Source: a virus (lineage: Duplodnaviria; Caudoviricetes). From it: 64,000 bases of DNA. Numbering within the stretch: the first letter of the stretch is position 1; the number at the start of each line of letters is the position of its first letter. Positions 668 through 64,000 of the stretch are shown here, in pieces. The stretch lies in IMG/VR virus record IMGVR_UViG_2706795090_000001, positions 2,709-66,708 of that record. One strand, given 5' to 3'. Under the pieces are notes generated by a model. It saw nothing but the letters and a program-made list of their open reading frames with translations, searched no databases and was not told the origin of the DNA. The position numbers and the translations under genes were made by a program.

Positions 668-680
668 AAATAGGTGCTCT

Positions 681-947: not shown

Positions 948-949
948 CC

Positions 950-1189
950 ATGAGTGAAAGCAAAACAATCACTATAAAAGTGAAACCGGACAATTCGAGT
1001 GAAGAACTTCAAAAAATATTGAAACAATTCAAAATGGAAACAGAATTTTCTCAAGATACTTTCACCATCCCATTTGATAATCATGTCATTATCCCAAATG
1101 GTCCATTGCTATTTATTCTCCCAGACAGGTTAGATACTTGTGTCTGTTTGGAACCCCATGAATTCGAAATTTTAAACAAAGAAGGTTAA
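950..1189 (+). CDS. hypothetical protein, paralog A
   Basis: aligns by eye with 1194..1433. Confidence 0.7.
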   Translation: MSESKTITIKVKPDNSSEELQKILKQFKMETEFSQDTFTIPFDNHVIIPNGPLLFILPDRLDTCVCLEPHEFEILNKEG

Positions 1190-1193
1190 TCAA

Positions 1194-1433
1194 ATGTCAG
1201 ATGAAAATGTAAAAGTACTTTTCAAAGTAACTCCAAAGAATGATGAATCAGAACTCAAACAGATGTTAGAAGAGTTTGAAGCAACTGATGAAAAACTGAC
1301 TGGTATTGTCACTATTCCAAAGACAAACCAACTAGTGACTGAAGAAGGCCATCTATTGATGGTTCATCCTCATCGCTTAGACTTTGCTCAAGCATGTGAA
1401 CCAGATGAGTTTGTAGCTCTAGCTGAACAGTAA
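1194..1433 (+). CDS. hypothetical protein, paralog B
   Basis: shares KVxP, EL, TIP, GxLL, PxRLD and EPxEF with 950..1189. Confidence 0.7.
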   Translation: MSDENVKVLFKVTPKNDESELKQMLEEFEATDEKLTGIVTIPKTNQLVTEEGHLLMVHPHRLDFAQACEPDEFVALAEQ

Positions 1434-1447
1434 TATTCAATTCAGAT

Positions 1448-1478
1448 ATAGGGTAGCCATTAGGTTACCCTATTTTTA
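1448..1478 (+). terminator. intrinsic terminator
   Basis: ATAGGGTAGCC/GGTTACCCTAT stem followed by T-run. Confidence 0.7.
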
Positions 1479-1493
1479 TTTAAGGTGTTTAAT

Positions 1494-1700
1494 ATGTTAT
1501 TGATAGAGACTTACAAAAATACCCAAGAAAAGGATAATCCTACCATTTGGTTTAATCGGGGTTTCTTTATTGGCTATATTCAATTGGATAACGGGTTCTG
1601 GTCTAACTCTTACACTGATGTGGCTTTTAAGAAATGGTTAAGAACTGGTGTATTTGTACGTTTAACCCAGAAATCAACAATAGCTGATTTAATCAATTAA
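1494..1700 (+). CDS. microprotein, MKLxxTY family
   Basis: internal ATG gives MLLIETYKN...IWF. Confidence 0.6.
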   Translation: MLLIETYKNTQEKDNPTIWFNRGFFIGYIQLDNGFWSNSYTDVAFKKWLRTGVFVRLTQKSTIADLIN

Positions 1701-1718
1701 CTTAATAGGACTAAACAA

Positions 1719-2660
1719 ATGAAAACTATGTTACCAAGAGATTACCAATTGATGCTTGAAAATAAATACTCAAAAGCAAATATTCGTAGTTACATCTTAA
1801 AAGATATAGCAGAGTGCAAAGAGTTAATGGATAAGTTAACTGTATGTACTCAGTCTATTAAGATTTGGATTAATGAAAACCATTATGAATCCAAGAAAGA
1901 ATCTCTACAGAAGTTAAAAGAAGTAGATATTACTGAGCTACTGGTAGATATGTTAAGTGTGTTGCTTACCCAATCTTACAAGATGGAGATTACTGCTGCT
2001 GTTGGATTAGTAGCTGGATTTACTCCTTGGGAAGATTACAAGGAAGCAATAAAACGTAGTGCTGAATTACTTTACCATATGGCAGCATGCGACATTATTG
2101 ATATGTCTCCTGCTTTCCTAAGTGAAACAGATACTATCCTCATTTCCAATAAATATGGATTAAGTGGTGAAACTGCTAAGTACATTGAAATGAGTAAGTT
2201 TACTCCTCCAATGGTTTGTGTACCTGAGACTGTTAAGAATGCAAGAGAGTCTGGTTATTTAACTAAACAGAAGTTCTCTATTATAAAGTCAAAGCATATG
2301 CACAACTTCCCAATCAATCTATCTTCAATTAATAAATTTAATTCAACTCCTTTGAGCTTGGATATGGAATTTCTGAAGATGGTTGAAGATGAAATAAGTA
2401 TTACAGTGGATTCAGAGAAAGAAGTGGAAATGCAAACCAAGAACTTCAATAAGTTTCGACTAGAGACTTACGATGTTTGTTTGGAAATGTATAAAGCTGG
2501 TAATCAGTTTTATCTAACTACTTTCTATGATGCTCGTGGACGTACTTATTCAAGGGGATATCACATCAACTATCAAGGTAACTCTTACCGTAAAGCAATG
2601 ATCAATATGATGCCAGCAGGCATCAATGAAGACATTGAACAATACAAGGATTTGTTCTGA
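1719..2660 (+). CDS. N4-like RNA polymerase II subunit 1
   Basis: PPMVCVP and FYLTTFYDARGRTYSRGYHINYQG (DxxGR) motifs of the N-terminal half of T7-type RNAP. Confidence 0.92.
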   Translation: MKTMLPRDYQLMLENKYSKANIRSYILKDIAECKELMDKLTVCTQSIKIWINENHYESKKESLQKLKEVDITELLVDMLSVLLTQSYKMEITAAVGLVAGFTPWEDYKEAIKRSAELLYHMAACDIIDMSPAFLSETDTILISNKYGLSGETAKYIEMSKFTPPMVCVPETVKNARESGYLTKQKFSIIKSKHMHNFPINLSSINKFNSTPLSLDMEFLKMVEDEISITVDSEKEVEMQTKNFNKFRLETYDVCLEMYKAGNQFYLTTFYDARGRTYSRGYHINYQGNSYRKAMINMMPAGINEDIEQYKDLF

Positions 2661-2875
2661 TGCAACTACATAAGACTTACTATGACAGTGCTGAATATGT
2701 TCCTGATTCTATTTGGTTTAAGTTTAAAAATAGTACTTGGATATATAGAACATACCGGCAAACATTTAATCCCTGCTTACAAGACTATTTAGACCCAAAC
2801 CATGAATTACACCACGATATGAAACCAATTCCACTTAATTGGATTATTGGTACTCAAGGACAAACTACTAACTAA
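2660..2875 (+). CDS. microprotein, MKLxxTY family, between the RNAP subunit genes
   Basis: MQLHKTY...IWF; start overlaps the RNAP1 stop. Confidence 0.65.
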   Translation: MQLHKTYYDSAEYVPDSIWFKFKNSTWIYRTYRQTFNPCLQDYLDPNHELHHDMKPIPLNWIIGTQGQTTN

Positions 2876-2893
2876 CTTAATAGGGCTAACAAA

Positions 2894-3333
2894 ATGAATA
2901 AATACACTCCAATCGAATACATCATGATTCAAATCGCTAACTCATTTGGTAAAGATAAATTACTGTTTGAAGAACGAATTGAATGGGTTAAAACCAATGG
3001 TAAGAAACTACGTACATTGGCTGATGAAGCTGATGATAAAGCTCAATACATTCGTGCTGTACTTGAATTAGAACGTGTATTGAATGGTCAGAAGTTTACT
3101 AATCTACCAATTGGTTTAGATGCAACTGCATCTGGTCTACAAATCCTATCTATCTTATCTGGTTGTGTAACTACCGGTTCTCAAGTTGGTTTGGTAATCC
3201 CAAATAAACGTTGTGATGTATATACGTCATTGGCAAACTACATGAATGAATACCTACCAGAAGATAAACATATTGTACTCTCAGGTACTCCAAGAAAAGA
3301 TCAGTTCACTAGAGATGATTTAAAAGATCCCTT
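2894..3333 (+). CDS. RNA polymerase II subunit 2, exon 1
   Basis: GLDATASGLQ (motif A); ends RDDLKDP-TT; spliced product is 408 aa. Confidence 0.9.
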
Positions 3334-4208
3334 AGATTGTTGAGGCTTTATACAGCAATGTATATCGAATAACTACGTGAATTCATGGAAAACCCTAACG
3401 TAAAGTCGAGGGCAATCATGAGCCAAGTTGACTTAGTTTAGTTAAAAAGTAATAATCACATAAAAGTGAACAATGGAGACTTTTATGTGTAACCTGCAAA
3501 CTAAACAATGTAATCAGTGTAAAGAAATTAAACAGATATCTGAATTCCCTAAGATTACTCATAATCAATTTAGAAGTTCAAAAGGAAGTTCTGGAACTCA
3601 TTCTTACTGTAAAAAATGCAGAAATACTACAGCAAGGGAATGGAGAAAGAATAACCCAGATTATCGGGGAACAGGTAAACTTAGCAAATATCCTAAGCAA
3701 GATAAGTTATTACTTTCTGCTATCAGAAGTAGAGTTTCTGATTGTAAAGGTAGAATACGCAGGGCTAATCCAGCTTGTGTAAACTTATTTGATTTAGATA
3801 CTGATTATATGTATGAACTCTTTAAGAAACAGGAAGGTAAATGTGCACTTTCCGGTACTAGTTTATCGCTTATTAAAAACGATTTGAATGTTCTATCTAT
3901 AGATAAAATCGAACCAAATAAGGGATACACTAAAGGAAATGTGCAATGGCTTTCATGGGCAGTTAACCGAGCTAAAGGTGAAATGTCTCAAGAAGAGTTT
4001 ATTGAACTTTGTCAAAAGGTGCAGAGACTATCGAAAGCATAACCGAAAGGTGAAGAAGCGAGTAGAGTAGGTTCAAGTGAACCGAAGTGCGTAGCATCTC
4101 TAACTAGAGATGATGATATAGTCCGACCTCGTATGAAAATACGAGCAGTTTGTAGCTGGAGAACTATAAACGGGGATAGTAATAACGAAACTGTCTTGAA
4201 CATTAGTG
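3334..4208 (+). mobile_element. group I intron in RNAP2
   Basis: exon ends in U paired with G in P1 (CCUU|AG with UUGAGG); P7 GACTA 4026 / TAGTC 4119; terminal G 4208; splicing restores KDPL-MTHFY (motif B). Confidence 0.88.
3473..4042 (+). CDS. intron-encoded HNH-like homing endonuclease
   Basis: CxxC zinc motifs; KQEGKCALSG...SIDKI...GYTKGNVQWLSWAVN. Confidence 0.8.
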   Translation: METFMCNLQTKQCNQCKEIKQISEFPKITHNQFRSSKGSSGTHSYCKKCRNTTAREWRKNNPDYRGTGKLSKYPKQDKLLLSAIRSRVSDCKGRIRRANPACVNLFDLDTDYMYELFKKQEGKCALSGTSLSLIKNDLNVLSIDKIEPNKGYTKGNVQWLSWAVNRAKGEMSQEEFIELCQKVQRLSKA

Positions 4209-4995
4209 AATGACACATTTTTATTTCTCTAAGGAACAACCAAAGAAAGTATTTGGGGATAACACTGTTGAACTAATTGCTTTCTATAAAGCTGTAGAAC
4301 AAATGGCACCGGGTGCTAATGCATTGATGCATGATATCTATGGAGCTATGCGTAAGGATGCTACAGAGTACAAATGGACACTTCCTGATGGTCATACAGC
4401 ATTTACTCGTGTATTCGTTGAGAAAGATTTCAAGGTTGAACTTGAAGAGTTGAAGAACCGTTCTGGCAATTCATCTACCTTTACTCACCGTATGAATGTA
4501 AATGCACCAAATGAGCGAGATGTGGCTCTAGTAGCTAACGTAGTTCACTCAGTGGATGGATTCCTTGTACGTGAGATGCAAGGACGTATGAACCATAACA
4601 AGAAACAGTTACTGAAAGTATTGGATGTAACAGCAGGATGTAAAGTAACCATTAGAGATGAAATGGTTTCTATCTATGAAGCTGAACATCTACTAAACGG
4701 TAAAACTCAATATACTGATAATACTCTTGGTTTACTAAGAGAAGTAATTGAATCAATTATTGAGAACCCAGTTGCACCAATGACTTCAGTACATGACCAG
4801 TTCAATACTGTTGCACCATTCTGTAATCAGATGCGTCAATATTATATTGATATTTGTGCTCAAATGGCTGAATCAAATATGATTCAAAATATTCTACGTG
4901 AATTATACTTCAATCCAAACCTACGGTATGTGAAAGAGGGTAATCACCTAGAATTAGCTAAAGCTATTCGTAACTCGAATTACAGCATTTGTTAA
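4209..4995 (+). CDS. RNA polymerase II subunit 2, exon 2
   Basis: WTLPDG, ANVVHSVDG and SVHD (motif C). Confidence 0.9.
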
Positions 4996-5002
4996 ACAAT
5001 AT

Positions 5003-5033
5003 TCGGTACTCTTCGGAGTACCGGTATTTTTTT
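5003..5033 (+). terminator. intrinsic terminator
   Basis: CGGTACTC-TTCG-GAGTACCG followed by T-run. Confidence 0.85.
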
Positions 5034-5046
5034 CAGGAACCAATAC

Positions 5047-6010
5047 ATGAAACTACTTAGCACATACTCCCCAGCATTAGATAATGATGATCAAATAGAA
5101 ATTCCAGACGGAGAAATACTATATACACTTTATATGGATAAAAGATACGCTAGTTTAAAAAGATGGCCTTTTGGTGATGAAGAAGAAGTAAAAACTTACT
5201 GCGGTAATAAAGTTAAAAGGAACCAATAAATGAAATTATTAAATGTTTACAAGTTTATGCACAAGGAAAATCCTTGGATATTAGTAATACCTATTCACCG
5301 ATATAAATTACGTACTTTAAATATAATAACTAAACAATTTGACGTATATACTTTTAGAAAAACAAATTCAATGGAATACTGTTGTGGTGATAAATTAACA
5401 AGGAAAGATAATGAAATTATTTCCAACTTACAAAAATGACTATTGTAAATTCAGAATAACCAAGGATTCAAATGAAACTACTTAATATTTGGGTACACCC
5501 TACTGAACCTGAAAGTTGGTTCCACCACTTTAAATTAAATAACCAAGTAATAAGATTTATACCCTCACCAAAACATAAAATATGTACTTGCCCTCTCAGA
5601 AGAATACCGAATCATTTCGTTAAACTAGATAAACAATTAACAGTTCTTCGAACTGTTTAGTGGAGGTAAGTTTATGAAATTACTGAAAACTTATAACGGT
5701 CATAGGGTTGATTTTACAATATGGTACAAATTAGGCAGGTATTGTAAATATCGCGCAGACAATAAACTAGGTTATGTTGGAATAGTTGTAGGTGTAGATA
5801 AGGAACATTGGATAAATGTTAACTGTTATAAACGTATTCCACGTAAAATTAATAACCAACAAGATAGTCTAGGTTAACTGTATGAAGCTAATTAAAAACT
5901 CAGGAAGTTATAAACCAAAACTATATATAGTAAACCTACCTATTACTTATAAAGTTTGGTTCAGACCTCAGCATAAAGATTTTAAAATTAAAACAACAAA
6001 AGGAAATTAA
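5047..6010 (+). CDS. cluster of six MKL-family microproteins (starts 5047, 5230, 5411, 5472, 5674, 5882)
   Basis: N-termini MKLLSTY, MKLLNVY, MKLFPTY, MKLLNIW, MKLLKTY, MKLIKNS; abutting or overlapping. Confidence 0.65.
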
Positions 6011-6018
6011 ATATAAGA

Positions 6019-6264
6019 ATGAAAATAACTAAATATAATATTCACCATTTTCTAGATAAAATTGAATATGATTATTCAACAGAAACATTAACTTTCTATA
6101 CTAATATTAATGGTTATTACTTACCTGTAAGTATTATCAATATTAGTTTAGAACCAACAGTAGTAATTACTACTAATATTAAACAATTAGATAGTCTAGG
6201 CATTACTAGAGATAAACTATTTGAAGGTGTTATACGATGCAAGAATTTAAGAGGGTACTCGTAA
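6019..6264 (+). CDS. hypothetical protein
   Basis: 81-aa ORF. Confidence 0.5.
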   Translation: MKITKYNIHHFLDKIEYDYSTETLTFYTNINGYYLPVSIINISLEPTVVITTNIKQLDSLGITRDKLFEGVIRCKNLRGYS

Positions 6265-6509
6265 AAGTAAGTGTAGATAAGTTACAAAGCGGTTTATCTA
6301 TTAATAGTTTTGGCGCTAAACCAAAGTACTGTACTGGTTATAAATATGGTTCAGTTCCCTTTTATATACCTTTAAAGAGTTTACTTGAACAAGGATTTAA
6401 TTTTCCAGATAAGTCACCAGAGTGGTATGAACAAGGTAGTGCCCTAATAGACAACATACCTTGTTATATGTTTTGGCCTAGTGAAGTAGAAGTACTAGCG
6501 GAGAGTTAA
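6237..6509 (+). CDS. hypothetical protein
   Basis: 90-aa ORF with AAGGT upstream. Confidence 0.55.
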   Translation: MQEFKRVLVKVSVDKLQSGLSINSFGAKPKYCTGYKYGSVPFYIPLKSLLEQGFNFPDKSPEWYEQGSALIDNIPCYMFWPSEVEVLAES

Positions 6510-7019
6510 ACTGTATTCATGAATACCGCTAGCAATAGCTAATGCTAATTCTTCTTTATGGTTTTCCATAAGTAGATAGTCTACATCATTGTCAATGAAT
6601 CCCGGTTCTAGAATTACACAAGGCATACTAGTAGCTCGTAGGATTAGTTCACGTTCACTTGGTTTAACACCCCTATCACGTAAATCTAGAATATCTATAA
6701 TTGAATCCTGAATGAACTGTGCAAGCTTAGCACCACGTTTACTTGAAGGGTAATGAAGTACTTCAGTACCAGAAGCAATCTTATTGAATGCATTACAGTG
6801 AAGCTCTACAGCTACATCTGCACCAGTAGCATTAATTTTCTTAGGTAAGTCTTTCAGACTTTCCCGCCAAACCAATACAACTTCATGACCAAGTTTATGT
6901 AGTTGTTCTTTAATCAATGGTGCAAGTGCACTATTAAATTGAAACTCAGTAACACCATATGTTTGGTTTACTGCTCCTTGTTCCTTTTCTGAATGTCCTA
7001 CAGAAAGACAAATTTTCAT
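6495..7019 (-). CDS. N-acetylmuramoyl-L-alanine amidase (endolysin, Amidase_3)
   Basis: SVGH...E, VELHCNA, SGTEV and ILEPGFIDN motifs. Confidence 0.92.
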   Translation of the reverse strand: MKICLSVGHSEKEQGAVNQTYGVTEFQFNSALAPLIKEQLHKLGHEVVLVWRESLKDLPKKINATGADVAVELHCNAFNKIASGTEVLHYPSSKRGAKLAQFIQDSIIDILDLRDRGVKPSERELILRATSMPCVILEPGFIDNDVDYLLMENHKEELALAIASGIHEYSLTLR

Positions 7020-7042
7020 TTAATTACCTTTAGGAGTTTACT

Positions 7043-7339
7043 ATGAATCTGAAACACATTATTACCTTACGTGACCAAAAAATTCAAACACCTCGTTTAG
7101 TAATTCTTTGTATGGTTCACCATTTACAAATGAAAACTAACTCTGCATTTGTTGGTGAACTATCTGCTTTGTATTCACAAGTAGGTCGTGGAACTTACAA
7201 CTATACAGCAGTAAATGTTATGTGTAATAAACTGGTTAAGACTGGTTTGTTACATAAAACCAAAGAAGGTATTTACCCTTCCTATAGTCTTACTCAACAA
7301 GCAGAGAAGCTAATCAAACCTTTTGTAGAAGAGTTCTAA
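7043..7339 (+). CDS. winged-helix DNA-binding protein (putative)
   Basis: C-terminal KLVKTGLL...YSLT wing pattern; AGGAG RBS. Confidence 0.5.
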   Translation: MNLKHIITLRDQKIQTPRLVILCMVHHLQMKTNSAFVGELSALYSQVGRGTYNYTAVNVMCNKLVKTGLLHKTKEGIYPSYSLTQQAEKLIKPFVEEF

Positions 7340-7340
7340 T

Positions 7341-7538
7341 ATGAAACTACTACCTACTTATAAGTACCTTCAAGTACCTTTTTCAGAAAGTACTGTTTGG
7401 TTTTCTTTCAATAATTCGGATGTGGGTATCGTTGATATTTCTGACCCAGTACACAATGCGGTAGAAATAGACCATGTGTGGAATGATGTTAATAATTTCC
7501 CTGATGATTTTGTAAGAAGAAATAAACAGGATAATTAA
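7341..7538 (+). CDS. microprotein, MKLxxTY family
   Basis: MKLLPTY...VWF. Confidence 0.65.
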   Translation: MKLLPTYKYLQVPFSESTVWFSFNNSDVGIVDISDPVHNAVEIDHVWNDVNNFPDDFVRRNKQDN

Positions 7539-7539
7539 T

Positions 7540-7701
7540 ATGAGCCCTAAAACTATCTCTGTACCTATAAATGATTTAGAAGAGCTTATTAAAGCTTATG
7601 ATTCTTGGGCAGGTTACCATGAACCTGATTATAGAGAATTATACTTAAGTCGTTTTAATAAGTTACGTGAAAAAATAAATAAAGAAAAAGAGCACAATTA
7701 A
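7540..7701 (+). CDS. hypothetical protein (53 aa)
   Basis: MSPKTISVP... fills the gap between coupled genes; read manually. Confidence 0.55.
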   Translation: MSPKTISVPINDLEELIKAYDSWAGYHEPDYRELYLSRFNKLREKINKEKEHN

Positions 7702-7702
7702 T

Positions 7703-8017
7703 ATGCTCTTTGACAAAGTTAGAAAAGCAAACCAATTAGAGTTACCCATTAACTACAATACTTCTCATTGGTCTGTTAGAAAACAAGCCAGAGAGCAATA
7801 TGTAACTCTACAAGATGGTAAATGTTGGTTCTGTAATAATTTACTTAAAGAAGAACCAACAAAAGAAATACTATCTAAACCAATCAATATAAAACTATTC
7901 CCTAAGAATATGTTTCAATACCCAATTCACTTACATCATGACCACAATACTGGAATGACAATTGGTGCAGTACATGCACGTTGTAATGCAGTGTTATGGC
8001 AATACTATGGACAATAG
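7703..8017 (+). CDS. endonuclease VII/HNH-like protein
   Basis: QDGKCWFC...HLHHDHNTG...VHARCN. Confidence 0.75.
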   Translation: MLFDKVRKANQLELPINYNTSHWSVRKQAREQYVTLQDGKCWFCNNLLKEEPTKEILSKPINIKLFPKNMFQYPIHLHHDHNTGMTIGAVHARCNAVLWQYYGQ

Positions 8018-8026
8018 GAGTCTACT

Positions 8027-8446
8027 ATGGCTATTAAATTACACTTGGTTCGAGATGATGAAACTAAAGTTGTTCCTTATGGTTTCTCTTGGACTACATT
8101 TATCTTTTCATTCTGGCCTTCATTAATTCGTAAAGATTGGTGGAGTGCTTTCAAAATTCTACTAGTAAGTTTCTGTACCACACTAGGTTTAACTCTTGCT
8201 GGTTCATTGGTTTACCACTACGAAGGTATGTATGGTGTATATCTATTTGTGTACCTATTAACTGTACTCATTGATTGGGTAATTGCAGATAAGGTAAACA
8301 GTTGGTATTCACGTAAACTTGCTTATCTTGGTTGGAAAGTGGATTGGGTTAAAACACTTGAATCCAATGAACGTATCCGTGAACCAAGAACAGTATTAAA
8401 TCTGTTAGCAGTAGATGGTTTTTCATTCAAAGGAGATTATAAATGA
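8027..8446 (+). CDS. membrane protein (DUF2628-like)
   Basis: GFSWTTFIFSFWP motif and hydrophobic helices. Confidence 0.6.
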   Translation: MAIKLHLVRDDETKVVPYGFSWTTFIFSFWPSLIRKDWWSAFKILLVSFCTTLGLTLAGSLVYHYEGMYGVYLFVYLLTVLIDWVIADKVNSWYSRKLAYLGWKVDWVKTLESNERIREPRTVLNLLAVDGFSFKGDYK

Positions 8447-8745
8447 AACAATTAAGTTTATTTATTTTACTTTTCCTATCTGTATTTATCTTTGGATGTA
8501 AATCTGAAGCAAATGTAAGAGACAATCAAATTTATCAGCTTGGTTTTGAATTCAAATTTAAAATTGGTAATTACACAAAGCTTTATCAACATAAAGTTAG
8601 TGGGAATTGTTATTCATGGAATAGTGAATGGCGTGGTGGTGAAATGTCATTGGTTCCTTGTTCTGACTTTGGATTACAAACCAAAGAAGAATTAGAACTA
8701 CTTGAGAAACAGCAATACTTAAAGTTAAAGGAAAAGTTTAAATGA
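8443..8745 (+). CDS. putative lipoprotein
   Basis: signal peptide ending IFGC lipobox. Confidence 0.6.
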   Translation: MKQLSLFILLFLSVFIFGCKSEANVRDNQIYQLGFEFKFKIGNYTKLYQHKVSGNCYSWNSEWRGGEMSLVPCSDFGLQTKEELELLEKQQYLKLKEKFK

Positions 8746-8936
8746 TTTACTTACAACTTCTTTTCTATGCTTTCGTAGTTATTTATGGTTTTTATGCGGC
8801 AATTAATATTGCAACTAATAAAGAACCATTCAACACAAGTGATTCAATATTTAATCGTATTGCTGCTGTGGTAGTTATTTTAATTGTAGTTTTAAATAGT
8901 ACCCTAGACTTTCTAATAGGTGTAATGAAACTATGA
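8742..8936 (+). CDS. small two-TM membrane protein
   Basis: two hydrophobic segments; ATGA-coupled. Confidence 0.6.
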   Translation: MIYLQLLFYAFVVIYGFYAAINIATNKEPFNTSDSIFNRIAAVVVILIVVLNSTLDFLIGVMKL

Positions 8937-9784
8937 TTGATTACCAGTACATCCAACTATGTAAACGTATCTTAGCTGAAGGTAAATGGGTAACTAATCA
9001 ACGTACTGGTAAACGTTGTTTAACTATTCGTAATGTTACCTTCCACTACACACCACTACTCTACGGTAATGGTTGGTATGGTAACTTCCCTTTGGACACC
9101 ACTCGTAAAAGCTTCTGGAAAGCAGCTATTGCAGAGTTACTTGGGTATTTGAAGGGTTATACCAATGCACATGAATTCCAAGCTCTAGGTGCTCCTACGT
9201 GGATTAACAATGCATACAATCCTGTATGGTTAGAGAATCCTAACTGTAAAGGTGGTGGTGATATGGGACATTGTTATGGTTCTGTAGGTCATAACTTTGG
9301 TGGGGTAAACCAATTCAAGAAAGTATATGATAATTTATCTGCTGGTATTGATGACAGGGGTGAGATTATTACCTTCTGGAAACCAGATGACTTCGATAAA
9401 GCTTGTTTACGTCCTTGTATGTTCCAACATCATTTCACTTTGATTGATGACCAACTATCACTTACTTCGTATCAGCGTAGTTGTGATGTTCCGTTAGGGC
9501 TAAACTTTAACATGATTCAAGTATATGTATTCTTGGTTCTAATGGCTCAGATTACAGGTAATCAACCATTGGGTGCTACGCACCATATTGTGAATGCTCA
9601 TATGTATGAAGACCAAGTAGAGCTAATGGAAGAACAAGTTAAACGTCAACCATTAGATATGCCTAAGCTTTGGGTAAATCCAAACATTACTACATGGGAT
9701 GATTTGATGAATGCAACTTTAGATGATTTCAAAGTTGAAGATTACAAACACCACCTTGCAATCAAATATCCATTTACTACTTAA
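8933..9784 (+). CDS. thyA: thymidylate synthase
   Basis: RTG, ELL, LRPC (catalytic Cys), YQRSCDVPLGLNFN, AHMY. Confidence 0.96.
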   Translation: MIDYQYIQLCKRILAEGKWVTNQRTGKRCLTIRNVTFHYTPLLYGNGWYGNFPLDTTRKSFWKAAIAELLGYLKGYTNAHEFQALGAPTWINNAYNPVWLENPNCKGGGDMGHCYGSVGHNFGGVNQFKKVYDNLSAGIDDRGEIITFWKPDDFDKACLRPCMFQHHFTLIDDQLSLTSYQRSCDVPLGLNFNMIQVYVFLVLMAQITGNQPLGATHHIVNAHMYEDQVELMEEQVKRQPLDMPKLWVNPNITTWDDLMNATLDDFKVEDYKHHLAIKYPFTT

Positions 9785-9793
9785 GGAACTGTA

Positions 9794-9970
9794 ATGGAAC
9801 GTGAGGATAAATTAATGGATGCTATTGATGTTCTGGTTCAATCTTTTATTGATAGTGGTGCACCTAACTTTCAAGGCCATCGTGTAGAAGATGAAAACAC
9901 AGGACAACAATACACCATTATCGTACACAAACTAGGTGGTTTAATTCCTGACCAATCTAAGTTTGAATAA
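9794..9970 (+). CDS. hypothetical protein (58 aa)
   Basis: AAGGA RBS; MEREDKLMDA...; read manually. Confidence 0.6.
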   Translation: MEREDKLMDAIDVLVQSFIDSGAPNFQGHRVEDENTGQQYTIIVHKLGGLIPDQSKFE

Positions 9971-56962: not shown

Positions 56963-58588
56963 TCATACTATATAAGAAGACATTGCATAAGATTCAGTCT
57001 GTACTTCATCTTCCCACAAGCCAGAAGTATCATTATATTTCAATTCAATGCTTTCACTTGGTTTCCAAATCTTCATTAAACTCAACATAGAAATAGTATC
57101 TATAAAGTCATCATGTTTAGATTTAAAACCACTACGTGAAACCAATGATAATTCATTATGAGCTTCTACCATTGCAGGATGTTCAGACATATCTTCAGGG
57201 AAGTATATCATTCTTTGTTTGAACCAAGGTAATACAGTTAAAAATCTAGTAAACTTCTGGTTCGTAGGTCTTATGCCCGGCTTATTATTGTTACCTTCTG
57301 AAGCAATATTGAAGAAGATATTCTTATCCATCATCATAGATTTGATAAGAGATACAAATCCACCTTGTTGACCAGTAACTTCTATACCTACATCAATTGG
57401 TTTATATATCTGAACCAATCTAAATAAATCTTCAATAGTTACATCTATGGTTTGTCTCTTACAAATACCATCAACCCAATAGAAGTAACCTTTATTATTT
57501 ACTGCCCACACAGATATTACACTAAAGTCAGCTTGTTTCTTTTCACTAGTGGCAAAGTCAGTAGTAATATAAATATTAAAGTTACCTAAGTTTCGGATTA
57601 CATCCGACCTCACAAAGTATTGAATATCCCCTTGTTCAATTAACTTATCTTCTTCGGGCATAATACGTAACATTAACTCTTGGTTAAATGCATCTAACTT
57701 ATGTAATCCTTTCATCTTGTTATAGAGTTTTAGAATAGAATCATAATCAAAACGATCTTCCCAACTACCTCTAAACTCTTCTCTACTACAAGGAAATGTT
57801 TCACATACTGGATATACGTTTACTGCCCAAGCACCAGATTCAACTGCTTTATACAATGGGTCACTTGCATTAAATGGGGTACCTGACCAAATTACTTTTC
57901 TCTTGTTTGGGTGCAATGCAAATTCAATAGCATTGTATACAGTCTCTTCAATAGCTTTAATTACTGTAGGTGAACGTGCATCTTTATCACTAACCAAGTC
58001 ATCCAATAAAGCTAATACTGGTCGGCTATTGTTTTCCCTAGTGCCTCGTACGCCCGTCTGTGCACCATGACCACTAACTACAAAAGACTTACCTTCTTTA
58101 TTTATAAACTCCCAACGTATATCTGTGAATTTTAGTTTAGGTATGTACTGCTGTAAGAAACTGCTGTTATTCCAACGTTTCTCTAAAGATAATCTCATCT
58201 TCTTCACACCATTATCTATAGAGTCAGAAACGTACAATGCATAAGGAACTGAACCAAGATTAGGTAATTCATTAAATATAGCGATGTACCAAATCAAGTA
58301 TTCTTTCAATGTGGACTTGGCAATGCCCCTATGACACATATTAATAGTATCAAAACCTTTCTTAACAAAATTATCCAACATTCGTAGATGAACTACTGGT
58401 GTTTTGTTTTCAGGGTTACCACCTTCAATTAACTTAATTAAGTTAACCATCTTCACAGCAAAATCTGAAGGTACATAATCATTGATATCTGAATAATCAC
58501 AGTTATTCAGATAATCCTCTACTGTCATTGCTACTTTGGTTTTCTCTGGTAAATCACTCATCTTCTTTACCACTCGTAATTGCAGCAT
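56963..58588 (-). CDS. terL: terminase large subunit
   Basis: HRGIAKST, GVRG, LLDDL, GTPF, TTDFA, KHDDFID; start probably ATG 58561. Confidence 0.94.
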   Translation of the reverse strand: MLQLRVVKKMSDLPEKTKVAMTVEDYLNNCDYSDINDYVPSDFAVKMVNLIKLIEGGNPENKTPVVHLRMLDNFVKKGFDTINMCHRGIAKSTLKEYLIWYIAIFNELPNLGSVPYALYVSDSIDNGVKKMRLSLEKRWNNSSFLQQYIPKLKFTDIRWEFINKEGKSFVVSGHGAQTGVRGTRENNSRPVLALLDDLVSDKDARSPTVIKAIEETVYNAIEFALHPNKRKVIWSGTPFNASDPLYKAVESGAWAVNVYPVCETFPCSREEFRGSWEDRFDYDSILKLYNKMKGLHKLDAFNQELMLRIMPEEDKLIEQGDIQYFVRSDVIRNLGNFNIYITTDFATSEKKQADFSVISVWAVNNKGYFYWVDGICKRQTIDVTIEDLFRLVQIYKPIDVGIEVTGQQGGFVSLIKSMMMDKNIFFNIASEGNNNKPGIRPTNQKFTRFLTVLPWFKQRMIYFPEDMSEHPAMVEAHNELSLVSRSGFKSKHDDFIDTISMLSLMKIWKPSESIELKYNDTSGLWEDEVQTESYAMSSYIV

Positions 58589-59231
58589 GGGCTATGTCTT
58601 TAGCAGTCATTTCACCACTTTGAACCAATGCTACTTGTTGTTTACTTAAATTAGCTAATGCAGCACTCAAATCTGCAATTACACCTGTATCTGTAGTACC
58701 AATCTCTACATTTATCTTAGCTGACTCTGGTGCTTTCAACTCTTTCAATAGAGTAGCAGCAGCTTGTACTTGGTCACGCTCACACTTAGCATTCTCCATT
58801 AAGTCAGCTAATCGAGCTATAGACTTATACCGGATAGAAGCATACATGATATGGTCAGGAATAAGTGTTTGCTCATAAATAAGAGTAACCAACTTAGTCT
58901 TATTGTAGGTACTTGCGTAAGCAGCCATATCTTTATTAGAGATATTTCTATTTACCATGTCCTGTACTCTAGCAGGGAATACCTTTTGGTAAGCTGCCAT
59001 ATTGCTCATACCCATTGTCTTATAGGATACAAACATTACAGCATTGAAATAGTCATCTAATTTGAATCTACCTTCTTGTAGTACCTTAGAATAAGTAAGA
59101 ATATTATCTGTATAAACATTAGCCATTTGTGGGTCAGCAATCATCTTGTTCAAATCATCTACAAATTGCTGAGTAATTCTGCTCTTATGTTGTTTAGGGA
59201 CTGAATCTCTAAGTTCTTCTACTGTAAGCAT
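58554..59231 (-). CDS. N4 gp69-like protein (putative terminase small subunit)
   Basis: Y.NAV.FVSYK.MG; directly upstream of terL. Confidence 0.7.
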   Translation of the reverse strand: MLTVEELRDSVPKQHKSRITQQFVDDLNKMIADPQMANVYTDNILTYSKVLQEGRFKLDDYFNAVMFVSYKTMGMSNMAAYQKVFPARVQDMVNRNISNKDMAAYASTYNKTKLVTLIYEQTLIPDHIMYASIRYKSIARLADLMENAKCERDQVQAAATLLKELKAPESAKINVEIGTTDTGVIADLSAALANLSKQQVALVQSGEMTAKDIAHAAITSGKEDE

Positions 59232-59281
59232 GTTACACCTTAATAGAATATTGGGTTGATATAGTTAAGTAAGGATACAAT

Positions 59282-59470
59282 ATGAATGAAATAAAAATCA
59301 AACCTTCTAAGATTGGTTCACTTCGAGCTATCGCTCGTTCTGAAGGAGCTGTAAACGAAGATGGAAAGATATCAGTTAGTTGGATGCGAAGAAAACTAAA
59401 AGACCCAAAGACGTCTACAGCAGTAAAGAAAAAGATTAACTTTGCATTGAACGCAAGAGAATGGAATTAA
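59282..59470 (+). CDS. small basic protein
   Basis: IKIKPSKIG...KKKINFALNAREW; AAGGA RBS; heads the microprotein array. Confidence 0.65.
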   Translation: MNEIKIKPSKIGSLRAIARSEGAVNEDGKISVSWMRRKLKDPKTSTAVKKKINFALNAREWN

Positions 59471-62400
59471 ATGAAACTAATTAAAACCAAACATGTGAAA
59501 TACTCTTCACCAAAATTCCCACTACCTTTAAATCCTTTTAGTGGGGCTTACCAATTATGGGAAAGATACTCTTTAACGGAATTTACTTATGAGCTTAATT
59601 AAAACTCGCCCTTACCAAGGACAACTTAACCTGTACCAACCCAAACGATTAATAAAATATTACGATAATTTTTATGAATTATGGGGTGTTGATTACCTAG
59701 TGGAATTTAAATATGCAGTTAATTAAAACCAATGTTGAAAAGTATCCTAGTCCTTTATTTAAACCGCATAATTTAGCACCGCAATTCCAACATGAATATG
59801 ATCTATGGGGTACTAACTTTTTAGTGGAATTTGAATATGTACCTAACCAAGAATAGATATGCCTTTGGAGTAACCAATAGGTATTTCACTAAGATAACTA
59901 AACATGTAATTGGTGGTTACTGTTTTGATACCTTTGATGGAAGGAGATTACTTATAAATGACATTACATAAAGTAACTAAACAAACTAAAGTTTACACTG
60001 AATATACCTATTACGTGTACGGTACTTTTCCGATTGCTTACAATATATTTTTTGAAAGGTTAACCTACTAATGAAACTACTAAATACCTATGAAAAGAAA
60101 GCATTGAAACCACTTAAAGATGTTTTATCTTTTTGGTACTTAGATAAGTGGTATGTACAAGAATTGTATAAGACACCAGCAAGATAGATGAGTTTTAATA
60201 AATTTTGGAGCATTACTGAATTTGATAAATTCACTAACCCACAAGACCAGTATAGATGGACAATTAGAACCAAATGAAATTATATAAATCAACGGAAGGT
60301 TCATGGGCACTTTCTTACACAATTACATCTATAAATAGAATTTTATTTATAGATAGCCTAGGAGTTTACTACGCATGAAACTAGTACAAACTTATTCAAC
60401 AAAATCAGATTTAAAACAGTTAATTGGGTTCAAAATAAAATATTTAGATACTTGGTTTACTGTATTTAAATTCGAAATAGAACCTTCTTACAACCGGTAT
60501 ATACCTCTCCTTATTTATCCAATACTTAAGGGAACTACTTGGAGTGATTTCGGTGAAACTGCATGAACTAGATAAACCAAAAGAGATAATTGGTATATGG
60601 AAGTATTACTACTTACCTAAGTACCATGTAAGAGTTTACATAAGTGAATTAATTGGTGCAGTTGGTTTAGGTAACTAATATGACTTTACACAAGACAATT
60701 CAAAATAAACCAGATGTATTTGTAATATACAAAGGAAAATGGATATGGCTCTTATAGAAACATATGACTACAACGGTATAGTACTTAAAGGGGAGAAACC
60801 ATACATACCTTACTTAGGTAGATGGTATACAGGTAATAAACAACTAAGATTATCTTTTAATCCTCACAGTCCTAACGCATTACTAAGAGTACACACATGG
60901 TAATACTCCCTACAACTAAAGGTATATTTATGAGTAAATTACTTATAGATGTACCTTATAAACTTAATACTTACTTATTTATCCTATGAAACTAGCACAC
61001 ACTTATAAACAATCTTTTTACATATTAAACTTTGTAGTCTCAGGATACTCTTCCACATTTTATATAAGAGGTAAACTCAAAACATTTACATATACTCCTT
61101 CAGAGTTCTTTAAACTATATTGTAAACCTTACCCTAGATTTACAAAAGAGATGAACCAATGAGATTACTTAAACAAAGAACTAAATACTCTACTCAGAAG
61201 GAACCAACATTATTAGTAAAAGTCATTAAACCTTTCTATTTATATCATTCCAATTCTGTCACGGTAACATTTAAATATGAGATTAATTAGAACTAGAGTA
61301 ATTGATTATTTATTTCTTTCACCTGAACCAAGATTAATAAAACTAAATCAACGTTATACCATTGGTTCAGGCAGGTCAGATTACTACTTCCAATGGGAAC
61401 CAATATGAGATTAATTAAACCATACAAACAATCCGATAGTCATAGTAGTTCAAATATAAAATTACATTGGGTTGTATGGAATATTTATACACTTACTATT
61501 AACTACCAATGGAGAGCTTTCTACTATGTCCCTAATAAAAACTAACCAAACTTCAAATGGTAATCTTGATTTTGGTTATAAATATCAGTATTGGGTTTAT
61601 AGATTAAAAGAAGGTAGATTACTATGAAATTAATAAAATCACTTAAACCATTAACTAATTATGTGTTAAAAGATTCTAGGTTATATAAAAGTAACCCGGT
61701 AATGGATAGATATATATTAACTAATGGTTGGTTAACTTATAGGTACAATTATGAAATTAATTAAACATTACAAAGATCAACTTAACTTTATTCAATATAC
61801 TCAAACGTATTTAGCTAAGTATAGTAGTGATACTGGATTTATCCTTGTACTCAACTCAGGTAACTATTCTAAGTGGTACTTGAACCAATGAAGCTAACAG
61901 ATACTTACATAAATAATGGTAATGTTAATCCTAAGACATGTATTTGGTTTAGGGTTAATAGTTACTACTTAGCTTTTCCTTTTAGAAGTAATACTGCACC
62001 AAACCAACTAAGAGTAGCTGAAGGATTTGGTTATAGAACTTGGGATTATTGGTTAGAAGATAAATCCATACTTAAATTAACTAAACAAGAAGGAGAAGAA
62101 TTATGCAATTAATTGAGACTTACACTAGTGCTAAAGGTATTCCTATTTGGTTTAAATTTAATAGCGATTCTTTTTTACAGAGGCAATTTGAAAAGTTAAA
62201 GATTACCGGTAATGGTGCTAGTGAGTTAAGTACTTGGAAACGTGTAGGGGTACTTAAGAAACCAACAGGTAAAACATGGGGTGAATTATGCAATTGATTG
62301 GTAACTACACTAGTGATACGAAGGTATGTATTTGGATTCCATATAGAACAGACCATTATGGTTTTAGATTTAATAAAACTTTAATTACACATCTAACTTT

Positions 62401-62676
62401 TAGAGCGACACAAGTAAGTAGCGATTTATTTGAGTATTGGTTAGATTCAAAATCTATTTACAAACCAACAAAAGAAGAATGGAAAGAGATATGCAGTTGA
62501 TACACAACTATACTAATTCACGTAAAAAAGTTATGTGGTTTAATTACCTAGATATAGTGTACGCCTATAACAGTTATCAGATAGTACAACCTAATGTAAC
62601 TACCACACTTTTAAACTCATGGTTAAATTCAGATAGATTTAATAAACTTAAAAATATAGTTGATAGTCTCGCGTAA
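59471..62676 (+). repeat. tandem array of about 23 overlapping MKL-family microprotein genes
   Basis: starts at 59471, 59589, 59713, 59837, 59958, 60071, 60274, 60375, 60553 (GTG), 60680, 60745, 60897, 60986, 61159, 61277, 61405, 61526, 61624, 61751, 61888, 62103, 62288, 62491. Confidence 0.75.
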
Positions 62677-62815
62677 AGAATAGATAAAATAATTTTTAAG
62701 ACCCCTTTTAAGGAAATATTAAAATTAAGTAAAGATGCAGTACTCCCATTTCCAGCTCACAAAATCCAAGCATACCCCCCGGTACCTCAGAGCTAGCTAT
62801 ACCAAACACATACAC

Positions 62816-62838
62816 ATTCCTTCGGAATACCTGTGGAA
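62816..62838 (+). promoter_or_regulatory. candidate virion-RNAP hairpin promoter
   Basis: ATTCC-TTC-GGAAT followed by ACCTGTGGAA; same spacing as the element at 330. Confidence 0.65.
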
Positions 62839-62872
62839 ATTAATCCGTTCATTTAACCATAGGAACTTCACC

Positions 62873-63094
62873 ATGAAACATCTAATTGCAGCACTAACTC
62901 TAACCCTCACTACTCTGTTCTCAGTATTCACTACTCTACTTGAGTGCATTGGTTTGCTATCTACTTCAGCTAAGAATGTAGCTCACGTAGTAGAAGATGC
63001 ATCAAATACATTCCGTATGGAAGAGAAACTGTTGAATGCTGATAAAATCAAGAAGCTTCAACAAGAGCTTAATGCTAAAGAAATTGAGCTATAA
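62873..63094 (+). CDS. early hypothetical protein (N4 gp1 position)
   Basis: AGGA RBS before MKHLIAAL; lies between the hairpin element and a terminator. Confidence 0.6.
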   Translation: MKHLIAALTLTLTTLFSVFTTLLECIGLLSTSAKNVAHVVEDASNTFRMEEKLLNADKIKKLQQELNAKEIEL

Positions 63095-63098
63095 CTAT

Positions 63099-63128
63099 TG
63101 GACTCTTCGGAGTCCTTTAGTTCTTTTA
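63099..63128 (+). terminator. intrinsic terminator
   Basis: GGACTC-TTCG-GAGTCC followed by T-rich tail. Confidence 0.75.
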
Positions 63129-63187
63129 CACATTACATAACACAGAGATAGTTTATCTATCTTTAAGAGGAACCAAATGACATTACG

Positions 63188-63685
63188 TTAGGTAAACAAC
63201 ATAGATGCTTCGTAGATTTCCTCATAACTCTTAGTTGCCATTACTTCTTCCCAAGAAGATAAACCAAAGTGTTTTGTAATTGCAGCACGAGTTATATCTG
63301 TAGTATTACCTCTCTTAAGGTTCTCTACTTCAGCATTGTTCATCTGAACCAATACTTTGCCTAGAATAGTCTTAGTAAACTTCTGTCCAGTTTGATAGTT
63401 AGAATAGGTAACTGTCTTCATGTAACCAGTAGCAATTAGTTTACGTCTTACATCAGCAGTCTTACGTGCAGACCAGCCAATCAACTCACCAATTACCTTA
63501 TCATCTAAGTTAACATTACGTACATGTGACTTACATAGGTAATGGTCAAACAAATAGAACCCATCTAAACCAACTTCCTTAACTAGTTCAGATTTCTCCT
63601 CACGAGTTAGGTAGTCACGTGTAGATTTAGCATTATCTTTAGATGCAAACTCTATGATACTACTGGTTAATTCAGGTTTGTTCAT
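63188..63685 (-). CDS. winged-helix DNA-binding protein (replication-initiator-like)
   Basis: AAGGAGG RBS; DKVIGELIGWSARKTADVRRKLIATGYM HTH-wing pattern. Confidence 0.6.
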   Translation of the reverse strand: MNKPELTSSIIEFASKDNAKSTRDYLTREEKSELVKEVGLDGFYLFDHYLCKSHVRNVNLDDKVIGELIGWSARKTADVRRKLIATGYMKTVTYSNYQTGQKFTKTILGKVLVQMNNAEVENLKRGNTTDITRAAITKHFGLSSWEEVMATKSYEEIYEASMLFT

Positions 63686-63749
63686 ATTACCTCCTTAATT
63701 TATGTAAACTATTTAAAGAGTATTACACTACCAGTAAGGTAAGTCAACG

Positions 63750-63828
63750 TTACACGATTCGTGTAAACCAAAGCTCTTAATTACATAAATCACGTATCTT
63801 TATCTAAGTCGTTACGTAAATCGTGTAA
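63750..63828. repeat. three phased 17-bp palindromic boxes
   Basis: TTACACGATTCGTGTAA (63750), TTACATAAATCACGTAT (63781), TTACGTAAATCGTGTAA (63812); 31-bp period. Confidence 0.7.
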
Positions 63829-64000
63829 CACCTAAATTAGCTCAAACCCTTGTGTCATAAGGCTTCAGAGGGTGTTTGAACCAAAAGGTACCCTTATAAT
63901 ATTTATATAATATACCTAGTATTTACCTGTATAAATATACATACCTCTAAAACTCTCTGTATGCTTCTATATGAGGAGATAGTAGAGAGATAGGGGATAG

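Follow-up and report, generated by a model that had tools for sequence, protein, structure and literature searches.

A probable family of translated small proteins with a shared N-terminal tag and putative recombination joints in a relative of Vibrio cholerae N4-like phages

Introduction

The T-even internal proteins, as described in PMC3012670, form a highly diverse set that counters host defense and whose members have only a capsid targeting sequence in common; those of T4 counter host restriction. ORFans in the hyperplastic regions of T4-type phages are flanked by PeSL elements, intergenic promoter-plus-terminator cassettes of about 100 bp (PMC2839356), and the counter-defense gene tifA of T4 provides an example of recombination-driven segmental amplification (PMC9391042). 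Here we analyze a locus that has something in common with each of these systems, a run of small overlapping open reading frames (ORFs) at positions 59471 to 62676 (+ strand) of a 64,000-nucleotide stretch of virus DNA, referred to as the window. The window is taken from a virus contig of 66,708 bp (IMG/VR record IMGVR_UViG_2706795090_000001; CheckV completeness 98%), in which it spans positions 2709 to 66708. The array probably represents a family of translated small proteins that is specific to one lineage, has been amplified in tandem and is encoded in one translationally coupled operon, in which the junction between successive genes, here called cassettes, serves as a recombination joint.

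Like the T-even internal proteins, the array proteins are small and diverse phage proteins, and a conserved short N-terminal sequence, hereafter the tag, is the only part common to all of them (PMC3012670). Whereas the T4 internal proteins are found in the capsid, the array tag is predicted to be part of the protein fold, and there are about 40 family members, most of them shorter than 50 amino acids (aa). The likeness to PeSL elements is that a short repeated motif between small accessory genes would be a preferred recombination site, that the motif would explain insertions, deletions and replacements between close relatives, and that the shuffled genes would stay expressible (PMC2839356). 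However, the repeated unit of the array is only 15-30 nt long, lies inside coding sequence, where it takes in the ribosome-binding site, the start codon and the first six codons, and appears to be selected as a peptide. Tandem copy-number change of a small accessory gene through short-homology recombination is the feature in common with tifA, but the tifA copies are recent, identical and laboratory-selected, in contrast to the array copies, which are old, form no DNA repeat and show a subfamily identity of about 34% (PMC9391042). The positional counterpart of the array in N4 is gp70-gp72, three small rightward ORFs between gp69 and the right end. Tandem paralogues and a copy number that differs between close relatives, the two marks of a tandem multigene family, are both found at the locus.

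Results

The ORF chain and its relatives

An ORF scan bore out the gap-free chain of small ORFs described in an earlier account made from the DNA letters without database searches, the sequence-only reading. The run consists of 24 consecutive ORFs of 25-74 aa (in order 43, 45, 47, 44, 37, 38, 29, 34, 63, 41, 25, 52, 30, 58, 43, 43, 46, 33, 46, 46, 74, 64, 70 and 61 aa), whose junctions all fall within the range from a 20-nt overlap to a 1-nt gap, and cassette length averages about 134 nt. All 23 N termini that had been listed were found, with leucine at residue 3 in 22 of the 23, the exception being MVILPTT at 60897. The earlier figure of about 23 members holds for the ORFs that carry the tag; a 24th ORF, 60188-60277 (MSFNKF...), has neither the tag nor a Shine-Dalgarno sequence.

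The array region matches only seven phage records, and all seven are Vibrio cholerae N4-like podoviruses (Schitoviridae, genus Pacinivirus): JA-1 (two records, 91.0% identity over 83% of the query), VCO139 (two records, 87.8% identity), JSF3 (two records, 90.6% identity over 76%) and 12VC501 (80.0% identity over 80%). The GenBank records of these relatives annotate only 8-15 of the approximately 24 array genes. In JA-1, VCO139, JSF3 and 12VC501, cassette 6 is an intact gene of 68 aa with a different middle part and the same C terminus, ...WTIRTK. Because the 60188 ORF lies in frame right after a TAG and the relatives carry the intact gene, 60071-60187 and 60188-60277 are best read as one 68-aa gene cut by an in-frame stop codon; the absence of GGA, GAG or AGG upstream of 60188 fits with its not being a real start. 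The TAG is followed directly by an ATG in the same frame, and the arrangement could represent a pseudogene, read-through or a sequencing error.

Chance, coding and selection

Composition-matched shuffled sequence had been named in the sequence-only reading as the comparison that would expose a chance origin of such M-x-L chains, and the shuffles fell far short of the array. When the array was dinucleotide-shuffled 500 times, ORF starts of the form M-x-L averaged 1.1 and never exceeded 6, whereas the array has 21; for the stricter form M-x-L-[IL]-[KERQNHDG] the shuffles averaged 0.1 and never exceeded 2, whereas the array has 14. The longest run of coupled ATG ORFs (25 aa or more) comprises 14 ORFs, whereas over 200 shuffles the longest run averaged 1.15 and was never above 2. 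Genome-wide, the strict tag pattern has 31 occurrences on the + strand and only 3 on the - strand. The shuffles rule out the array as a chance product. One long gene, disguised by a different genetic code or by sequencing errors, was rejected as well, because the distances between cassettes are not divisible by three (from start to start, the first ones are 118, 124, 124 and 121 nt) and the other frames contain 45-104 stops per relative.

The same ORF chain is present in all four relatives (JA-1, VCO139, JSF3 and 12VC501), with same-length ORFs at 62-100% nucleotide identity. The ratio of nonsynonymous to synonymous differences (pN/pS) in the called frame, taken over codons that do not overlap a neighbor, is 0.40, 0.48, 0.67 and 0.49 in the four relatives, and over the same codon set the remaining two frames give 0.87-0.97 and 0.80-1.04. 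A single stop interrupts the called frame in the relatives, as opposed to the 45-104 in the others, and several cassettes show 5-7 synonymous versus 0-1 nonsynonymous changes. A GGA, GAG or AGG triplet is located 4-18 nt upstream of 19 of the 24 array starts and of 17 of the 18 starts of family members outside the array, compared with 27% of background positions and 7 of the 44 other ATGs in the array (p = 1.8e-7). We conclude that the array ORFs appear to be translated genes under moderate to relaxed purifying selection.

A decaying or neutral ORF nursery, in which the chain is open mainly through recent duplication and recombination and most members are functionless, would account for an overall pN/pS of 0.4-0.67 with some cassettes near 1, for the one stop-split gene and for a copy number that varies freely between close relatives. 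We regard this as quite improbable: the in-frame pN/pS is about half of the off-frame value, the ORFs have been kept open at 62-84% nucleotide identity in DNA of 29% G+C in which the other frames contain 45-104 stops, ribosome-binding sites are retained, several cassettes show the excess of synonymous change given above, and the family persists across genera.

The shared N-terminal tag

By N-terminal pattern, the family has 41 members in the 66.7-kb genome, 23 of them in the array and 18 at other + strand positions, these 18 dispersed copies being assigned partly by the pattern alone; the previous estimate of about 36 members was of the right order. The tag consensus is M-[KQR]-L-[IL]-x-T-Y. 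Codon 3 specifies leucine in 40 of the 41 members and does so with all six leucine codons (TTA 18, CTA 14, CTT 3, TTG 3, CTG 1 and CTC 1), in proportions near the leucine codon usage of the genome. Residue 4 is isoleucine or leucine in 32 of 41, residue 6 is threonine in 23 (codons ACT, ACC and ACA) and residue 7 is tyrosine in 21 (TAT and TAC). The second codon is AAA in 21 members. At the junctions with a 14-nt overlap, TATGAAATTAATTAA also codes for the upstream C terminus Y-E-I-N-stop, and the C-terminal motif F-x-Y-E-x-N of the upstream genes comes from the tag DNA in a different frame. Such overlap is not the cause of the tag, because the tag is kept equally at junctions with an overlap of 0-4 nt and in dispersed copies that are preceded by true spacers.

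A parallel array with another start is encoded by Vibrio phage 1.245.O (Pariacacavirus; MG592610.1, 1-2820, - strand), where 12 coupled ORFs of 52-80 aa lie in the corresponding position beyond the gp69-like gene. All 12 start with MSR, 10 continue with L-x-T and some have K, N or S at residue 6; of the 11 annotated coding sequences (CDS), 10 start with MSR. In these 10 annotated CDS, Ser2 is encoded by AGT (4), AGC (4) or TCT (2), and Arg3 by AGA (5), CGA (2), CGG (2) or AGG (1). MSRLxT is a second, different tag that likewise appears to be selected as a peptide. Several of the 1.245.O bodies contain CxxC pairs.

The sequence-only reading had proposed synonymous variation as the means of telling a protein tag from a DNA site, and the retention of Leu3 through all its codons points to a protein feature. 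Because Leu3 uses six codons and Ser2 of the parallel array switches between AGY and TCN, the tag appears to be selected as a peptide and not only as a DNA site.

Gain, loss and replacement of cassettes

In blastn comparisons with the relatives there are 30 internal segment ends at 19 distinct places, all situated -27 to +23 nt from a cassette ATG or from the array end, the latter being flanked by 4 of the 30 segment ends (two places). The tag DNA is the apparent crossover site for cassette gain, loss and swap, because all 19 distinct breakpoints fall within this interval. In four indels checked base by base, the flanks switch partner inside a shared 9-17-nt ATGA(A/G)NTTAATTA(A/G)A. Both JA-1 and VCO139 have two extra cassettes at 59471 (the JA-1 case was checked base by base), JSF3 has one extra cassette at 61277 and another at 61405, and 12VC501 is missing a pair of cassettes (61159 to 61405). 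There are also positions where an entire cassette has given way to an unrelated one, such as 61624-61764 in VCO139. The comparison across relatives that had been suggested at the outset has therefore placed the breaks of gains, losses and swaps relative to JA-1, VCO139, JSF3 and 12VC501 inside the junction. As for the proposal that ATGAAA(C/T)TAATT is a DNA site for crossover, crossovers do occur there, but the motif does not seem to be a DNA site only, the peptide being selected too.

The gp69-like neighboring gene is 98-99% identical in the relatives, with a pN/pS of 0-0.07, compared with 80-91% identity for the array, which appears to evolve much faster than this neighbor.

A sediment metatranscriptome library contains contigs of a related phage in which pieces are 85-99% identical and whole cassettes are missing or replaced, with joints at 59486/59702 and 61174/61448; these contigs are not evidence of transcription.

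It is formally possible, at rather long odds, that the start region, with its ribosome-binding site, ATG and A/T-rich first codons, is only a standard linker for translation initiation and recombination and that the encoded peptide has no function of its own. The position of the crossovers in the start region, the frequency of the AAA second codon and the reuse of the same DNA, in another frame, for the upstream F-x-Y-E-x-N would all fit with a nucleic-acid role, as would the difference in tag between genera (MKLIxTY compared with MSRLxT), which is what an arbitrary linker would show. However, only one of the 41 members has a residue other than leucine at position 3 despite the use of six codons, the Ser2 AGY/TCN and Arg3 AGR/CGN switches in the parallel array need selection on the amino acid, and synonymous differences reduce the very DNA identity that recombination needs.

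Variable bodies and predicted fold

The bodies that follow the tag are largely dissimilar, as had been noted previously, with a mean column identity of 14% among 33 members. The enrichment in aromatic residues and lysine was also borne out: Y, W and F together make up 17.7% of the array proteins compared with 8.7% of 26 large ORFs (W is enriched 2.9-fold and Y 2.5-fold), and the array proteins are rich also in F and K and poor in A, E and D. Subfamily A (11 members) has a mean column identity of 34% and the common motif Y..W...F.YE.N, and subfamily B (11 members) has a mean column identity of 25%. When the two subfamilies were compared with hhalign, residues 1-7 aligned and nothing more. A constant start with a variable body is a fair description of the family.

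The AlphaFold model of the 43-aa protein of cassette 1, which was built with 11 subfamily A sequences, has a pLDDT of 92.3 and is an antiparallel four-stranded meander (strands at residues 2-10, 18-23, 26-31 and 34-41). The model of the 74-aa subfamily B protein consists of strands at residues 3-9, 18-23 and 26-31, followed by two helices. The strand containing the tag has a block pLDDT of 92 in A (residues 2-10) and 79 in B (residues 3-9). The tag is thus predicted to be the integral first strand of the sheet, at its edge, and not a detachable leader.

Foldseek found no match in the PDB at E <= 0.001 with either model. With an exhaustive structure aligner, the top PDB matches of the 43-aa model were single beta-propeller blades (SF3b/DDB1-type, BamB and WD40), with Z scores of 4.4-5.1 and rmsd of 1.9-2.9 over 38-43 residues, a range that may reflect merely a common arrangement. 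A four-stranded antiparallel meander of about 40-45 residues is what defines a propeller blade, and the 43-aa model has this form; the resemblance is weak and generic. At E values of up to about 0.5, the named BFVD matches are members of this same family from Vibrio phage phi 1 and pVco-5; the remaining matches are nameless.

These matches raise the idea that the members of 43-47 aa are free-standing four-stranded blades that stack through the conserved edge strand, each with its own kind or in mixtures, into a propeller-like or other beta-sheet oligomer. A 43-residue sheet with 17.7% aromatics, two exposed faces and two free edges would be suited to such self-assembly, and the blade matches agree with the meander of the model. 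Nevertheless, we consider stacking very improbable, since Z scores of about 5 may come from a common arrangement, no propeller sequence motif or Pfam match is present and subfamily B has helical extensions.

Distribution of the family

A profile search of 1.84 billion representatives returned 12 proteins, all 12 of which start with or contain the tag. A search of 5.8 billion proteins returned 18, of which the named ones (two) are from Vibrio phage JSF3, and all eight sequences that were fetched are tagged; a search of IMG/VR returned one locus. Beyond Pacinivirus, phage BUCT194 (Varunavirus) has the same 62-aa gene that precedes the array here, followed by a chain of small ORFs; 17 of its 26 annotated small CDS start with M-x-[LIF]-[ILVF], and several look by eye like counterparts of members in the window. 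The tag was absent from the 19 small N4 ORFs annotated at 154-9908, and in the regions examined its pattern was found in 2 of 16 CDS of Shigella phage B2 and in none of 5 in Vibrio phage 1.188.A. Inspection by eye found no tag in 22 CDS of Vibrio phage K481, 4 of Pseudomonas phage Ab09 and 8 of Alteromonas phage AD45-P4. The family seems to be confined to a few genera of vibrio schitoviruses.

Among 33 members, Pfam gave three weak single-member matches (best E = 0.027). The 21 PHROGs families that matched are all of unknown function. A sequence search of the PDB gave a best E of 0.2 for subfamily A and nothing for subfamily B, and the ESM Atlas gave no usable match. A known RNA or DNA tandem repeat was rejected as an explanation, Rfam giving no match at E <= 0.1 in 59000-64000 and Tandem Repeats Finder no DNA repeat in the region. 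The literature contained no account of the array, nor of any microprotein family with a common tag in N4-like phages, with the reservation that supplementary gene tables may hold more, and the words "early", "paralog" and "hypothetical" do not occur in the available text of the JA-1/VCO139 paper (PMC3670811). The search for a Pfam family, solved structure, named relative or paper having found none, the locus still answers to the sequence-only reading of it as an undescribed, diversified small-protein repertoire.

Genome position and transcription context

The array operon diverges from the late gp69-like gene, across a 50-bp region (59232-59281) that is almost invariant in the four Pacinivirus relatives and partly kept in BUCT194, in contrast to the array itself. 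The arrays of these four relatives differ by 9-20%. A core of the region, ATAG..TAT.GG.T.ATATAG, is common to BUCT194 as well. The untagged first gene of the operon has 96-98% nucleotide identity, with no nonsynonymous and four synonymous changes relative to 12VC501. The large terminase gene (terL) was dropped as a baseline for selection, an intein in the relatives making ungapped comparison meaningless (46.6% identity), and gp69 was used instead. In this genome the terL product is 541 aa; JA-1 and VCO139 have an annotated intein-containing terL of 2,613 nt, the homologous CDS of JSF3 and 12VC501 have the same length, and this genome is without that intein.

According to Fouts et al., JA-1 DNA has the 12-nt motif GATAGGGGATAG at its 3' terminus, and the record carries at that end a direct terminal repeat that is 1,974 bp or more in length (PMC3670811). 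The JA-1 repeat begins about 54 nt past the last array gene, and by alignment the equivalent point in the window is near 62730. The last 12 bases of the contig are the JA-1 terminus motif, and the array ends 1.3 kb from it. Because the contig ends with this motif and the repeat aligns near 62730, the array would occupy the right end of the DNA found in virions, with the terminal repeat following shortly after it. The assembly seems to stop at the physical right end of the genome, and the terminal repeat is probably represented once in the contig. A 165-aa gene in the presumed repeat (63188-63685, - strand) has a weak match to DUF4385 (E = 1.2e-5; 25.9 bits, cut-off 27).

The interior of the array (59471-62676) contains no hairpin with G+C and no terminator-like site on the + strand, and promoter-like sites in 59000-64000 number 9, compared with 26 expected from shuffles. 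In this the array is unlike a PeSL element, which carries a sigma-70 early promoter and a stem-loop terminator. The array probably forms a single operon that is transcribed from the region upstream of it. In N4, the early genes are at the left end of the genome and follow hairpin promoters that have a stem of 5-7 bp and a loop of 3 nt. Perfect + strand hairpins of 5-8 bp with TTC or TCC triloops (template GAA or GGA) are found here from genome position -1685 (in window coordinates) to window position 39415 and again at 62816; they resemble the promoters of the N4 virion RNA polymerase (RNAP), and we take them to be candidate promoters. TTC is the commonest triloop genome-wide (13 of 132 hairpins). 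None of the TTC/TCC hairpins lies in or just before the array, which is probably not a classical early unit of the N4 type. The hairpin at 62816, within the presumed terminal repeat, lies ahead of a 73-aa membrane-protein-like ORF (62873-63094).

In N4-type phages the right genome end is the last to enter the cell. The location of the array at that end, diverging from the late operon (gp69-like gene and terL), would fit with late expression and packaging. In an address-tag model, the heptapeptide would direct these small proteins into the capsid, or to the portal or virion RNAP, to be injected together with the DNA and to act ahead of all phage gene expression. The tag is the sole common feature of otherwise unrelated bodies and is kept as a peptide, and the T-even internal proteins offer a precedent (PMC3012670). 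Even so, such loading is improbable in our estimation. The leader of the T4 internal proteins is detachable and is removed by the prohead protease, whereas AlphaFold puts the array tag inside the fold, with no free leader. In a search restricted to the PF04586 and PF03420 families, this genome, rated 98% complete, had no match to PF04586 (S78, HK97-type prohead protease; control positive in 4 of 14 genomes) and none to PF03420 (S77, T4 gp21 type), for which the control was positive nowhere. Approximately 18 members are encoded in early and middle regions of the + strand. Gel-band fingerprinting of JA-1 and VCO139 virions, as far as its account in PMC3670811 goes, assigned four of eight bands, all of them to large proteins, on a gel that would not resolve species of 5 kDa. 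The sequence-only suggestion of a capsid-loading signal comparable to that of the T4 internal proteins is consequently without support from the protease search or from virion proteomics.

Table 1. Coordinates of the array cassettes, dispersed family members and surrounding features (window positions unless marked otherwise).
Feature	Position	Strand	Remarks
Cassette 1, MKLIKTK, 43 aa, subfamily A	59471..59602	+	AlphaFold pLDDT 92.3, four-stranded beta-meander
Cassette 2, MSLIKTR, 45 aa, subfamily A	59589..59726	+	14-nt overlap
Cassette 3, MQLIKTN, 47 aa, subfamily A	59713..59856	+	14-nt overlap
Cassette 4, MYLTKNR, 44 aa	59837..59971	+	20-nt overlap; 9 synonymous, 3 nonsynonymous vs 12VC501
Cassette 5, MTLHKVT, 37 aa	59958..60071	+	
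Cassette 6, MKLLNTY	60071..60277	+	38 aa, in-frame TAG 60185-60187, then 29 aa
Cassette 7, MKLYKST, 34 aa	60274..60378	+	
Cassette 8, MKLVQTY, 63 aa	60375..60566	+	
Cassette 9, (M)KLHELD, 41 aa	60553..60678	+	GTG start, kept in 4/4 relatives
Cassette 10, MTLHKTI, 25 aa	60680..60757	+	
Cassette 11, MALIETY, 52 aa	60745..60903	+	5-7 synonymous vs 1-2 nonsynonymous per relative (4 relatives)
Cassette 12, MVILPTT, 30 aa	60897..60989	+	Sole member without Leu3; 1-5 synonymous, 0 nonsynonymous (4 relatives)
Cassette 13, MKLAHTY, 58 aa	60986..61162	+	
Cassette 14, MRLLKQR, 43 aa, subfamily A	61159..61290	+	
Cassette 15, MRLIRTR, 43 aa, subfamily A	61277..61408	+	In JSF3; not in JA-1, VCO139, 12VC501
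Cassette 16, MRLIKPY, 46 aa, subfamily A	61405..61545	+	
Cassette 17, MSLIKTN, 33 aa	61526..61627	+	Divergent allele in VCO139, 12VC501 (71-73% nucleotide identity)
Cassette 18, MKLIKSL, 46 aa, subfamily A	61624..61764	+	Other cassette here in VCO139
Cassette 19, MKLIKHY, 46 aa	61751..61891	+	
Cassette 20, MKLTDTY, 74 aa, subfamily B	61888..62112	+	AlphaFold pLDDT 69
Cassette 21, MQLIETY, 64 aa, subfamily B	62103..62297	+	10-nt overlap
Cassette 22, MQLIGNY, 70 aa, subfamily B	62288..62500	+	10-nt overlap
Cassette 23, MQLIHNY, 61 aa, subfamily B	62491..62676	+	Last array gene
Dispersed member MKLLETY, 61 aa	93..278	+	
Dispersed member MLLIETY, 68 aa	1494..1700	+	BUCT194 counterpart MLLIETYKH...
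Dispersed member MQLHKTY, 71 aa	2660..2875	+	
Four-member cluster: MKLLNVY 69 aa, MKLLNIW 62 aa, MKLLKTY 67 aa, MKLIKNS 42 aa	5230..6010	+	
Dispersed member MKLLPTY, 65 aa	7341..7538	+	N-terminal pattern only
Three members: MQLIKTC 64 aa, MKLLPTY 63 aa, MKLLNTY 59 aa	19470..19993	+	
Large terminase gene, late	56963-58588	-	Precedes array
gp69-like gene, late	58554-59231	-	Precedes array; array operon diverges from it
Divergent intergenic region, 50 bp, probable promoter region	59232..59281		gp69-like gene (-) to first operon gene
First operon gene, 62 aa, without tag	59282..59470	+	Stop abuts first cassette start; phrog_25798, unknown function
Probable direct terminal repeat	62730..64000		Boundary by homology/alignment to JA-1; about 54 nt after array
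First terminator-like hairpin downstream of array, GGACTC-TTCG-GAGTCC then Ts	63100..63115	+	
12-nt terminus motif, GATAGGGGATAG	63989..64000	+	Last 12 bases of contig
Candidate virion-RNAP promoter hairpins	genome -1685, -116; window 260, 330, 11263, 11379, 14241, 15950, 16053, 21443, 31430, 62816	+	

Discussion

One of the features of the proposed tandem family of translated small proteins is the amount of work done by a single short element. Each cassette would begin with a start codon and the tag codons, continue with a fast-diverging, aromatic-rich beta-sheet body and end in C-terminal codons that double as the ribosome-binding site, and often the start, of the next gene. The near-identical tag DNA of neighboring cassettes would provide 15-20 nt of homology, and recombination there would add, delete or swap whole cassettes in frame. 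The array could then behave as a gene accordion in which each new or shuffled body stays translatable. The joint would have three jobs, as a translation start, as a selected N-terminal strand and as recombination homology, and the conserved strand may act as a folding nucleus or as a common docking edge. The proteins themselves are most likely a variable accessory repertoire that would act on host targets, in counter-defense or host takeover.

A number of observations weigh against this account. The pN/pS of 0.4-0.67 is high, and 60375-60566, as well as 61526-61627 when compared with VCO139 and 12VC501, is nearly neutral; given the high ratios and the one in-frame stop, part of the array may be decaying. 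The homology of subfamilies A and B would rest on seven residues, so that the members may not all be of common descent, and the subfamily B model, with a pLDDT of 69, is of moderate confidence only. No sequence or structural relative carrying a function was found in the searches. The place of the array at the right end, upstream of candidate virion-RNAP hairpins, argues against the usual early timing of host takeover. Three RNA-seq runs gave no reads on 59000-64000, but the presence of the phage in them is not indicated and the result speaks neither for nor against transcription; a search of sequencing runs found none above 0.20 of the region's words.

A bolder scenario, which we hold to be unlikely, starts from the same tandem family and makes the heptapeptide an address tag on a hypervariable effector library, with a conserved phage or host hub reading M-K-L-I-x-T-Y as an edge strand. 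Such a hub could be a chaperone, a protease, a partner in injection or the site at which proteins are loaded into the virion. If this were true, the interchangeable bodies would each neutralize a different host factor, the tag DNA would be the joint for in-frame shuffling, and the MSRLxT array of the other genus would be an instance of a general, undescribed phage strategy.

If the array is the probable family of coupled, translated small proteins that we have described, approximately 40 genes of a 67-kb phage would belong to one unannotated small-protein family. It would also illustrate a mechanism for making and keeping variable phage gene repertoires, in which one element unites the signals for initiating translation (ribosome-binding site and start), a peptide under selection and the joint at which recombination takes place; each crossover would yield a translatable gene, because the joint carries the ribosome-binding site and the start. 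The array is present in cultured V. cholerae phages (JA-1, VCO139 and JSF3), and the role of the tag is therefore directly testable at the bench.

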